64,000 bases of DNA from Escherichia coli. Its GTDB lineage: Bacteria; Pseudomonadota; Gammaproteobacteria; Enterobacterales; Enterobacteriaceae. This document shows, one piece after another, positions 40,601 through 43,600 of the stretch (the stretch's first letter is position 1; each line of letters begins with the position of its first letter). Location: NCBI RefSeq assembly GCF_045037415.1, contig NZ_CP173438.1. One strand, 5' to 3'. Made by a program: the position numbers.

Positions 40601-43600
40601 TACGAGGATCTTCACGGTAAAAGCACCATGCCAGCCAGCGTTAGTCCCGCTGCCGTGCCAATCAACATTACAGGTTTATCCGCTGTGAAACGACCGCTAA
40701 TCACTGCTTCATGCAGCGCCGTGGGGATAGAGGCCGCGACCTGATTGCCGTAAAAACGATACACATCGATGAGCGCAGATTCCGGCACTCGCAGCCGTTT
40801 ACGCATATGTTCAAGGGAAAGATGACTGGCCTGATGCGGAACGACCGTGCCGATATCAGACAGTTGCAGGCTGCTTTTTTGCAGCAACCGAGAAAAATAA
40901 TCTTCAATAAGCGAAGAAGCAAAACGAAACAGCGGTTTCCCCTGCATATGAAAAAGAAAGTCGCTATCACTCACACCAGAGCGAGGATTACGCCGCGTAC
41001 CGCCAGCACGAATTTCACACAGTTCGCTGCCTTCGGGATACATTTCGATCAGGCTAGCGATAATCCCGCTGCGCCCATCGCCCCGCTCAACAATCGCGCA
41101 CGCCGCGCCATCACCAAAAATTAATGAAGACTCTTCATGATCCCAGTCGATACCGCGTGAAGCAATATCTGCCGAAACGATGGCAATGCGTCGATATGCT
41201 CCACAGTTTAATAATCCGGCAGCGACTTCAAGAGCGGAAATAAAGCTCACACAGCTACTGTTGATATCAAACCCGGCAACGCCTACGGGCATGGCTGCGG
41301 CTTTAAGAATATGAATTGCGCTACAGGGTAATGCCTGTACGGCAATGGCCGATGCACAAATTAGCAGATCAATATCAGAAGGATTTAAGGCTGCCGCTAC
41401 TAACGCATTATGTAAAGCCTCTGCCGCCAGTTCGGCCTGGCTGGCGTCGTTGCGGGCAAAATAGCGCCAGCAAATACCGGAACGTCGCTCAACATAGCCA
41501 ACTGGCTTATTTAACTGAACATCCAGTTGTTTAGAAGTGATTTGATCAGGGGGTAAGGCGATCCCCGTGGCGATTATTTTTAACGCCGCGGAGATCGTCG
41601 GTTGATTAGGTCGAGCCACGGTCAGTGCTCCTTCACTGCTCCATAGGTGGACCAATCATATAGATGAAGTACGTTTCCCTACAATCCGAAAAATCGGCAG
41701 TGTGTAACCGCCGATGTTTGGTTTAGATAATGTTTGGTTTAGATAATTAGTGACGAGCGCGCACCAGCTGATACTTACGCGTCAGATACTCCACCGGGAC
41801 ACTCCAGATGTGTACCAGACGCGAGAACGGGAACAGCAGGAATAACGTCATCCCCAACACCAGGTGCAGACGGAAGATAAACGCCACGCCATCAAGATGT
41901 TGAGAAGCGCCACCGTGGAAGGTCACTACCGACTGCGCCCAGCCAACCAGTTTCATCATCTCGCTACCGTCCATATGCTGAGCAGAGAACGGAATGGTCA
42001 GCAGGCCCAGCGCGCACTGGATAACGAGCAGCGACAGGATCAGGATATCCGCTCCGGTAGTCGTTGCACGCACGCGTGGGCTGAACAGACGGCGTTTCAA
42101 CAACAGCACGCCGCCAATCAGACACAGTACGCCGCTGGCACCACCAGCAAACATCGCCATTTTCTGCTTCACTTCAATCGGCAGCCAGGCTTCATACATC
42201 CAGTGCGGCGTCAGCATACCGAAGAAGTGACCGACAAAAATCCCCAGAATACCGATATGGAACAGGTTCGACGCCAGATTCATCCCTTTGCGATCCAGCA
42301 TCTGGCTGGACGCCGCGCGCCAGGTATACTGCCCGTAGTCATAACGCAGCCAGCTACCAATCAGGAAGACCGCCCCGGCTATGTACGGGTAGATATCAAA
42401 GAAGAACATATTCAGGAATTGCATTAGTGCTGTCCTCCGGTGGTGATATTCAGATATTGCGGCGCGACGGCACCGGCAAAGCGACGCTGATGAGCAGTGA
42501 TTGCTGAATCACCGCAGCCTTTGTCAGCAAAGAATTTAACCTGCTCTTCTTCCCAGACTGCATCCAGCGCCTGCGGCGTATCGTCGCGCGCTTCGTCGGC
42601 AATTTTTTCCGCCACTTTGTCGCTGTCGATTGCGGTATTCGCCAGTTTCAGCAGCAGATCAAACAGCACGGCATAACGGCTTTCACGCTGTTGCAGACGC
42701 GCACTCAGCAATGCCAGAATCGGCGCAATATCTTTCAAACCCTCCACGGCTTCGCTTTGCGGCAGCTGCGCCAGGTACTCCAGATACAGCGGCAGATGGT
42801 CGGGCAATTCGCGGCTGTTTAACTGCAAGCCGTGCTGCTCGTACTGCGCCAGCAGATCCACCATCGCCTGGCCGCGGTCACGGGATTCACCGTGAACATG
42901 TTCAAATAGCAACAGTGACGTGGCGCGGCCACGGTCGAACAGTTCGCTGTACTGCGCCTGGGCATCGAGCGGATCCATCGTCGTTAAATCGCGCAGGAAA
43001 ATGCCCAGCGCATGGGCATCCTCTTTTGGCAGATTTTTCGACGCGGCAATCGCCTCAAACATCTCTTGTTGATGCTGCCATAAGGCAGCATCCGGATATT
43101 CAAGGAGACGCGATACAATCACGAGTTCGATCATGGGTGCGGCTCCGTTTTGCTGGTTACGTCGATGGCATCGATACGGCGGCTGTTGAACAGATTGAAT
43201 TTGGTATCTGAACCGTGGCAGCCATCACCAAAGGTAAAGCCGCAGCCATTTTTCTCCGGGAAGGCTTCCCGCGCCAGTTCACGATGACTGCTCGGCACCA
43301 CAAAGCGATCTTCGTAGTTGGCAATAGCCAGATAACGATACATCTCCTGTGCCTGGGCTTCGGTCAGACCGACCTCTTCCAGCGCACGGGTATCGACTTT
43401 ACCGTCAACGGTTTCAGCACGTTTGTAATGACGCATCGCCAGCATACGTTTCAGCGCGCGCAGTACCGGTTTGGTATCACCGGCGGTCAGCAGATTCGCC
43501 AGATACTGTACCGGAATACGCAGGCTTTCGACGTCTGGCAGAATGCCGTTGCTGCCCAGTTCACCCGCGTCTGCCGCAGACTGAATCGGCGACAGAGGCG

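Follow-up and report, generated by a model that had tools for sequence, protein, structure and literature searches.

Anatomy of the junction between narGHJI and a seven-gene cluster in B2-type Escherichia coli: a marginal terminator, a candidate promoter and a copy-variable repeat

Leaky terminators between adjacent, co-directional operons, and the partial read-through that they allow, are a general phenomenon in bacteria, and the nar operon, which is under FNR and NarL control, is among the most strongly induced operons of Escherichia coli under anaerobic conditions with nitrate. In strain K-12, narI is followed by an intrinsic terminator (CCCTGC-TTCG-GCGGGG and then seven T residues) that scores +32 on the discriminant d, by which we mean our own re-implementation of the 1990 formula of d'Aubenton-Carafa, run with ViennaRNA energies and used for ranking only. 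Here, we describe the corresponding junction in a 64,000-nt segment of an E. coli chromosome of the B2/ST131 type (contig NZ_CP173438.1; the whole segment is hereafter called the window), in which narI is followed, on the same strand, by an operon of seven genes. An earlier note on this DNA had described the seven genes as an island lying about 130 bp downstream of narI, behind a moderate terminator and a 16-bp tandem duplication, and had proposed either that incomplete termination couples the operon to nar or that the operon has a promoter of its own in the spacer. We find in the spacer a real yet marginal intrinsic terminator, a candidate promoter whose −10 box is conserved across genera, and a repeat whose copy number varies between strains. 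The operon most likely has two inputs, an own weak promoter and, in B2 strains, nar transcripts that escape the leaky terminator, a reading to which we give about an even chance. The junction resembles described leaky-terminator operon pairs in that a strong, co-directional upstream operon and a weak hairpin precede a downstream operon with a presumably weak promoter; it differs from them in that read-through is here only predicted, and in that the same junction is strongly terminated in related genera.

The spacer between narI and the cluster

All coordinates are those of the whole window, and the spacer is described in its direction of transcription, along the minus strand. The final gene of the nar operon, narI (41747–42424, minus strand; taken from the list of open reading frames, ORFs, and from the RefSeq annotation of an identical genome), ends with a TAA codon at 41749–41747. 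The first gene of the cluster, also on the minus strand, starts with a GTG codon at 41619–41617, which leaves a gap of 127 bp (41620–41746), in agreement with the earlier estimate. This GTG is the start given by PGAP in identical genomes; it yields a protein of 335 residues, a length common to the homologues, and the Shine-Dalgarno sequence AAGGAG is found 8 nt upstream. At 41450–41950 and 41540–41752, the two stretches queried, JJ1886, O25b:H4-ST131 strains and others match the window with 100% identity. Within the operon all gene junctions are overlaps, of 4–23 nt, with no internal intergenic region that could hold a promoter, and the spacer is therefore the only non-coding point of entry for transcription of the cluster. 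The spacer is not unusually structured overall (z = −0.93), and in an Rfam scan of 33000–43000 (E ≤ 1) a tRNA was the sole match, the spacer having no family match.

The only hairpin in the gap, AUCGGCGGU-UACAC-ACUGCCGAU, which is followed by a TTTTT tract, occupies 41689–41715 on the minus strand (hairpin, 41715–41693; T-tract, 41693–41689) and begins 33 nt past the narI TAA. Its core, TCGGCGG-TTACACA-CTGCCGA, shows the seven pairs, one of them G-T, that had been noticed before. RNAfold stretches the stem, which includes five G-C pairs, to eight or nine pairs around a 5-nt loop, with a folding free energy (ΔG) of −11.1 kcal/mol for the eight-pair form, and TTTTTCGG follows. The hairpin has a d of +4.1, a value attained by none of 300 shuffled versions of the spacer and by 10 of 984 tiles of 130 nt covering both strands of the window (about 1%), those others ranging from 6.5 to 41.5. 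The hairpin is beyond chance but stands at the bottom of the terminator class; it is a real yet marginal intrinsic terminator. Like the K-12 narI terminator, it is a G+C-rich stem-loop placed after the last stop codon, at the same place relative to narI, and is followed by a run of T residues. The two sequences, however, are unrelated, homology ceasing at the stop codon, and in the window the run consists of five T residues and then CGG, the stem contains G-U and A-U pairs, and d is about +4 as against +32. The T-weight of the tract is 3.85, compared with 4.4–5.8 in the strong homologous terminators. Incomplete termination, as proposed in the earlier note, is thus plausible, although at a terminator that is weak rather than moderate.

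In six other genera the same junction carries a far stronger terminator. The gap between narI and the cluster measures 96–114 bp in Superficieibacter, UBA5654, Citrobacter gillenii, Leclercia, Enterobacter sp. and Kosakonia, and in all of them a G+C-rich stem of 7–10 bp is followed by six to eight T residues (eight except in Leclercia), with d between +29 and +49. About 55 nt remain in these genera between the terminator and the start codon of the cluster, so that the cluster promoter must lie there, overlapping the terminator; the sequence TAT[G/C]AT sits within this stretch. Moreover, the hairpin is followed, in Leclercia as in Escherichia, by TTTTT(T)-[A/C]GGATTGT, and this common flank makes the E. 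coli hairpin the positional equivalent of the strong terminator of Leclercia. Elsewhere in Escherichia the stem is interrupted by a mismatch or has decayed (d from −26 to −57; ΔG of −4.6 or weaker), with degenerate versions in E. whittamii, E. albertii and E. coli N96. Two positions in the left arm set the B2 hairpin apart from that of the sister Escherichia, and one of these differences removes the internal mismatch, so that all nine positions pair in B2. As a separate observation, several Serratia loci (L028, L031, L078, L020 and L079) have a very stable, G+C-rich hairpin within the first ~45 nt after narI (ΔG of −19 to −26), with no T-tract, as in CGCCGCCGCTGG-AAG-CCAGCGGCGGCG.

A candidate σ70 promoter, recognized by sequence comparison, lies downstream of the T-tract at 41655–41684 on the minus strand, and consists of TTGTAG (41684–41679), an 18-nt spacer and TATGAT (41660–41655). 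The −10-like box matches the consensus at five of six positions, with the A at position 2 and the T at position 6, and 11 of 13 Enterobacteriaceae loci, that of the window among them, have TAT[G/C]AT 33–35 nt ahead of the start codon. The invariant columns of our alignment A2 form four blocks: apart from the T-tract, the Shine-Dalgarno sequence and the start codon, there is the block C-ATAT-AT, and the sequence around the box diverges across genera. C-ATAT-AT shows the pattern that a −10 element would be expected to leave, its variable position being number 4, the least constrained in TATAAT. As to the −35 position, Escherichia has TTGTAG at 18 bp and in the other genera it falls within the T-tract of the terminator. 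Judged by conservation, a promoter of the operon's own in the spacer seems favoured over nar read-through. No universal upstream motif was seen across the 80 species loci described below, the −10-like box being limited to nar-adjacent loci of Enterobacteriaceae. Motifs for σE, σ32 and σ54 were checked by eye and set aside, as only weak, non-conserved resemblances were found.

Between the −10 box and the gene, the translation start region (41617–41638, minus strand) contains a 5-bp stem, CAGTG/CACTG (41638–41634 and 41627–41623), that holds the Shine-Dalgarno sequence (41633–41628) in its loop ahead of the GTG. The arms of the stem are also part of an 11-nt direct repeat (GGAGCAGTGAA / GGAGCACTGAC), and Tandem Repeats Finder (TRF) flags 41622–41642. 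A mini-ORF of eight codons, MIGPPMEQ*, runs from an ATG at 41659, inside the −10 box, to a TGA at 41633 that overlaps the first base of the Shine-Dalgarno sequence. It is kept within Escherichia but not in Leclercia and has no Shine-Dalgarno sequence of its own, and we dropped it as an explanation.

The 16-bp tandem duplication of the earlier note is likewise present (41715–41746, minus strand). The unit, TTATCTAAACCAAACA, occurs as two perfect copies, at 41746–41731 and 41730–41715, for which TRF gives a period of 16, 2.1 copies, 100% matches and a score of 68; the two matches observed compare with 0.02 expected by chance. The unit has no G and 25% C. A single copy is found in Nissle 1917, LF82, E2348/69 and ATCC 25922, two in the window and in ST131, three in S1-IND-01-B, four in Ecol_244 and G749, and five in EcPF7. 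When 60 of the 673 genomes that carry the junction were sampled at even spacing, one copy was counted in about 18%, two copies in 53% and apparently three or more in 27%, the last class being inferred from alignment start points (Ecol_244, which belongs to it, was read and has four). Among 84 loci the repeat is confined to the two with a B2-type junction. With head-to-tail copies that range from one to five between strains, the element is a variable-number tandem repeat (VNTR). It resembles in this respect, and in the perfection of its copies, the intergenic VNTRs used in multiple-locus VNTR analysis (MLVA), although to our knowledge the locus does not figure in published MLVA schemes and any regulatory role of it is putative. 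Speculatively, the length of an untranslated, G-free repeat could in principle affect Rho loading or the folding of the hairpin. The place of the repeat is held in the sister Escherichia species and in E. coli N96 by an inverted pair, GCCTGATGCGCTGCGCTTATCAGGCCTAC ... GTAGGCCGGATAAGGCG, which, from the known consensus, we take to be repetitive extragenic palindromic (REP) elements. The REP and bacterial interspersed mosaic element (BIME) sequences thus fill the same spacer in these lineages, whereas the window has no REP and carries the 16-bp repeat instead.

How the operon may be transcribed

In the arrangement that we propose, the spacer alone would control an operon of seven translationally coupled genes with a putative role in lipid tailoring. 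Its first element would be the G-free, copy-variable repeat, in the place held by REP/BIME elements in sister species; the second, the hairpin and its U5 tract, a weakened positional counterpart of the strong narGHJI terminators of related genera; the third, a weak σ70-type promoter whose −10, TATGAT, is conserved and whose −35 is poor; and the fourth, a predicted leader of about 27 nt with a good Shine-Dalgarno sequence. The promoter would give a low basal or a regulated input to the operon, and, in B2, a fraction of the nar transcripts would pass the leaky terminator when nitrate at low oxygen induces nar. Since nar is strongly induced and the hairpin is weak, even a modest escape could rival a weak promoter. 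Away from nar the upstream neighbours of the cluster are unrelated, and the cluster therefore needs expression signals of its own there. The co-directionality of the genes, the short gap and the conserved adjacency are what a single transcription unit would show, but a terminator between the genes is not. The anatomy, its conservation and the relative strength of the terminators are shown by the comparisons above; how active the promoter is, how much nar transcription reads through and whether the number of repeat copies matters are inferred.

Several observations weigh against the two inputs. The −35-like TTGTAG matches the consensus at only three of six positions, and the whole promoter at eight of 12; the poor −35 leads us to predict a promoter that is weak or dependent on an activator. 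A σ70 scan of 41200–42200, with thresholds of at least four of six per hexamer and nine of 12 overall, reported no promoter, and the TATNAT box is absent from two nar-adjacent loci, those of Enterobacter sp. BIGb0383 and Kosakonia. On the side of the terminator, the built-in scan of 41200–42200 does not call the hairpin: its rule asks for at least five T in the eight positions after the maximally extended stem, which the hairpin does not satisfy, probably because the extended stem leaves four T in the tail. The grading of the hairpin depends, moreover, on our own rendering of the discriminant, and the even weaker hairpins of the sister Escherichia make selection for termination doubtful. Finally, the best FNR match in the spacer has three mismatches and sits in the 16-bp repeat, and no NarL heptamers were found in the spacer; FNR or NarL control of the spacer itself was rejected as unsupported.

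A different possibility, which we hold to be rather unlikely, is that the operon is fully insulated from nar, the hairpin, possibly together with Rho loading on the repeat, stopping nearly all nar transcripts and the operon being served by its own, differently regulated promoter only. The very strong terminators found at this site in six other genera make insulation look like the ancestral design, and the −10 box is conserved as it would then have to be. The changes in the left arm of the B2 hairpin, which let every position pair and take ΔG to −11.1 kcal/mol, from −4.6 or weaker in sister Escherichia, would point the same way, as would the lack of G and the 25% C of the repeat. However, five U residues followed by CGG and a stem of 8–9 bp score far below the strong terminators, the copies of the repeat vary from one to five without any sign of constraint, and the part given to Rho is pure conjecture.

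That the spacer holds no functional promoter at all, the seven genes of B2 strains being a distal part of the nar transcription unit that is attenuated by the hairpin, strikes us as improbable. It would account for the failure of any promoter to pass the consensus scan, for the poor −35, and for the co-directional genes and the short gap, and what separates narI from the cluster in the sister Escherichia is just REP/BIME sequence and a hairpin that has degenerated. Yet the −10-like box is kept at a fixed distance even after a strong terminator, and the same cluster functions in many genomes behind unrelated upstream genes. Least probable of all is a neutral remnant, with the repeat as slippage junk, the hairpin as a decaying relic and the operon poorly expressed or being lost under no regulatory design, for although most complete E. 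coli genomes lack the cluster, E. whittamii, E. albertii and N96 have a degenerate hairpin, and the repeat varies freely in copy number, all seven ORFs are intact, nearly all of the junctions are at least 99% identical (numbers below), and the −10 box, the Shine-Dalgarno sequence and the start codon have been kept from genus to genus.

The junction is conventional and built from ordinary parts (a marginal terminator, a probable weak σ70-type promoter and a VNTR, with REP/BIME elements in sister lineages), and its general significance is accordingly modest. Nevertheless, an unstudied operon of a clinically important lineage, B2 (ST131, Nissle 1917, LF82 and E2348/69), is controlled from this spacer, and whether the operon is coupled to nitrate and anaerobiosis or is regulated independently decides the conditions under which its product should be sought.

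Distribution and history of the cluster

Of 5426 complete E. coli genomes, 673 carry the cluster and its junction, among them those of Nissle 1917, LF82, E2348/69, ATCC 25922 and ST131 strains, all of which we take to belong to phylogroup B2; the other 4753 lack the cluster. Over 41540–41752, a query that takes in the spacer and the beginning of the first cluster gene, 667 of the 673 are at least 99% identical to the window. In E. coli without the cluster, homology to the window ends exactly at the narI stop codon; the interval between narI and purU in K-12 holds the strong terminator, a REP pair, three rtT repeats, tyrV, another rtT repeat and tyrT. A few E. coli, such as N96, have an alternative spacer of 234 bp made of REP-like sequences and the degenerate hairpin.

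Beyond E. coli, 80 loci were obtained by scanning a single genome of each species with an alignment of homologues of the first cluster protein, a KASIII-like enzyme, and the window proteins were then compared with these loci by tblastn. The cluster has narI upstream of it in 23 of the 80, directly adjacent in 22 of them (spacers of 96–1100 bp) and 6 kb away in an Erwinia metagenome-assembled genome. Adjacent, co-directional clusters are found within Escherichia in E. albertii, E. whittamii and two cryptic lineages, and also in eleven Serratia species; among other Enterobacteriaceae, clusters that are likewise adjacent to narI and co-directional with it occur in two species of Superficieibacter, UBA5654, C. 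gillenii, Leclercia, Enterobacter sp. BIGb0383 and Kosakonia oryzendophytica. In Pectobacterium, Pseudomonas, Yersinia, Rahnella, Gilliamella, Snodgrassella and other Citrobacter the cluster occupies other sites, with unrelated neighbours; among ten neighbours examined away from nar (LysR, DpiB, an ABC permease, GGT, TruD, GlmS, MFS, NagK, salicylate synthase and one without a family match) no shared upstream gene or regulator was seen.

These data do not bear out the label of an island. The cluster is variably present next to a tRNA gene, tRNA-Tyr, which lies 16 nt from the last gene, but it is not absent from the same site in sister species. Its GC content (0.50–0.535) is like that of its surroundings, its DNA identity to the window within Escherichia (88–92%) is like that of purU (about 90%), and between narI and purU no integrase or mobility gene was found, all seven genes encoding enzymes. 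Within the flanks fetched, tRNA-Tyr is found downstream of the cluster in Enterobacteriaceae only, directly adjacent in Escherichia alone and at a distance of 3–4 kb in four further loci of the family; the Serratia loci scanned showed no tRNA. An island integrated at the tRNA was therefore rejected, given that the adjacency is peculiar to Escherichia, that there is no integrase and that GC is normal. The simplest reading of these comparisons is that the cluster would be an old resident of the narI–purU interval, lost by most E. coli lineages, and not an island inserted beside nar. The evolutionary picture is thus corrected, from a recent island to a presumably ancestral and often lost neighbour of narGHJI.

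A neighbor-joining tree of four core proteins, a quick distance tree that is not decisive, places the nar-adjacent clusters in three clades that are interleaved with non-adjacent ones, with Pseudomonas as sister to one Serratia clade; from this interleaving, horizontal movement of the cluster has also occurred. Exchange on a shorter time scale is suggested by Escherichia sp. MOD1-EC7003 (locus L003), in which the cluster is 98.5% identical in DNA to the B2 cluster of the window (16332–23213 of L001), as against 95.2% for narGHJI and 94.3% for purU. The high identity begins at the loop and right arm of the hairpin, which suggests that MOD1-EC7003 and B2 may have exchanged the cluster recently by recombination, with one breakpoint at the hairpin. 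In Serratia the spacers between narI and the cluster measure 1100 bp in S. quinivorans (L079, 7865–8965), where an ORF at 7870–8103 resembles, by eye, the C-terminal catalytic region of a tyrosine integrase, and 273 to 871 bp in others. The gap after narI seems to be prone to insertions in this genus.

The seven-gene operon and its flanks

The operon extends over 34738–41619 on the minus strand and was delimited from the ORFs, the RefSeq annotation, NCBIfam, Pfam and histidine boxes. Its genes encode, in order of transcription, a KASIII-like enzyme (40612–41619; in PGAP, a 3-oxoacyl-ACP synthase III C-terminal domain protein), an OleD-like SDR (39599–40615; NAD-dependent epimerase/dehydratase), an MBL-fold hydrolase (38815–39621), an adenylating enzyme related to F390 synthetase (37532–38818; F390 synthetase-related protein), a PAP2 phosphatase (36933–37535), a protein of the FA_hydroxylase family (PF04116; 35816–36940; sterol desaturase family protein) and one of the FA_desaturase family (PF00487; 34738–35829; fatty acid desaturase family protein). 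The last two match their Pfam families with E values of 1.8e-28 and 2.4e-23, respectively, and each has the three histidine boxes of membrane di-iron, O2-dependent enzymes. The best solved structures for the KASIII-like enzyme are PDB 4v2p, deposited as "ketosynthase" and presumably MxnB (E = 2.7e-49), and CorB (E = 8e-45). The SDR resembles OleD (E ~1e-44), and the MBL and adenylating enzymes have remote matches only, to a lactonase and to PaaK.

The KASIII-like enzyme and the OleD-like SDR liken the cluster to the systems for head-to-head condensation of the Ole type (OleABCD) and the pyrone type (MxnB/CorB), and these likenesses hint that two acyl chains might be condensed head to head. In contrast to those systems, however, all scores of the cluster are far below curated cut-offs, and OleB and OleC are missing; the cluster has instead the MBL-fold hydrolase, the PaaK/F390-type adenylating enzyme, the PAP2 phosphatase and the two di-iron oxygenases. 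Two forms of the cluster exist: a long form with KASIII, SDR, MBL, F390-related, PAP2, FA_hydroxylase and one or two FA_desaturases, and a short form, without both O2-dependent enzymes, that has the first four genes and a second, distant SDR. Both are found directly after narI. A full-text literature search found nothing on the cluster or its junction and no usable maps of transcription start sites, and the cluster appears to be uncharacterised.

It had been remarked in the earlier note that anaerobic read-through into genes for O2-dependent enzymes would be paradoxical. The histidine boxes and the Pfam matches uphold the premise that the two enzymes depend on O2, but the paradox is softened, because strong terminators insulate the cluster from nar in most relatives, because short forms without these enzymes stand at the same site, and because nar is also expressed at low, non-zero oxygen. 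There is, moreover, a slim chance that the adjacency to nar is a functional link: the strong ancestral nar terminator would have decayed in Escherichia, nar read-through at low oxygen with nitrate would reach the cluster, B2 strains would make a hydroxylated or desaturated, lipid-like product specifically where nitrate and traces of O2 coexist, and the copies of the repeat would tune the coupling. If so, the product would be made by B2 strains at, for example, the inflamed gut or the urinary epithelium, and the adjacency of nar and the cluster across Enterobacterales would reflect a tie between nitrate respiration and a lipid product.

On the downstream side, a single tRNA-Tyr gene (34637–34721, plus strand; ARAGORN and Rfam) converges with the last gene of the operon, its 3′ end lying at the 16 nt already mentioned from the stop codon of the desaturase gene (34738). 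Its promoter, corresponding to that of tyrT (34559–34586), is strong, with TTTACA and TATGAT separated by 16 nt (10 of 12 matches) and a TG motif. Compared with K-12, the window lacks tyrV and the rtT repeats at this place, and homology to K-12 ends about 5 nt past the CCA. There is no strong plus-strand terminator after the tRNA, and antisense transcription into the 3′ end of the operon seems possible. On the upstream side, the minus strand carries narK, narG (44666–48409), narH (43131–44669), narJ (42424–43134) and narI, in that order, before the seven cluster genes down to 34738; the narK terminator scores 34 on the discriminant used here.

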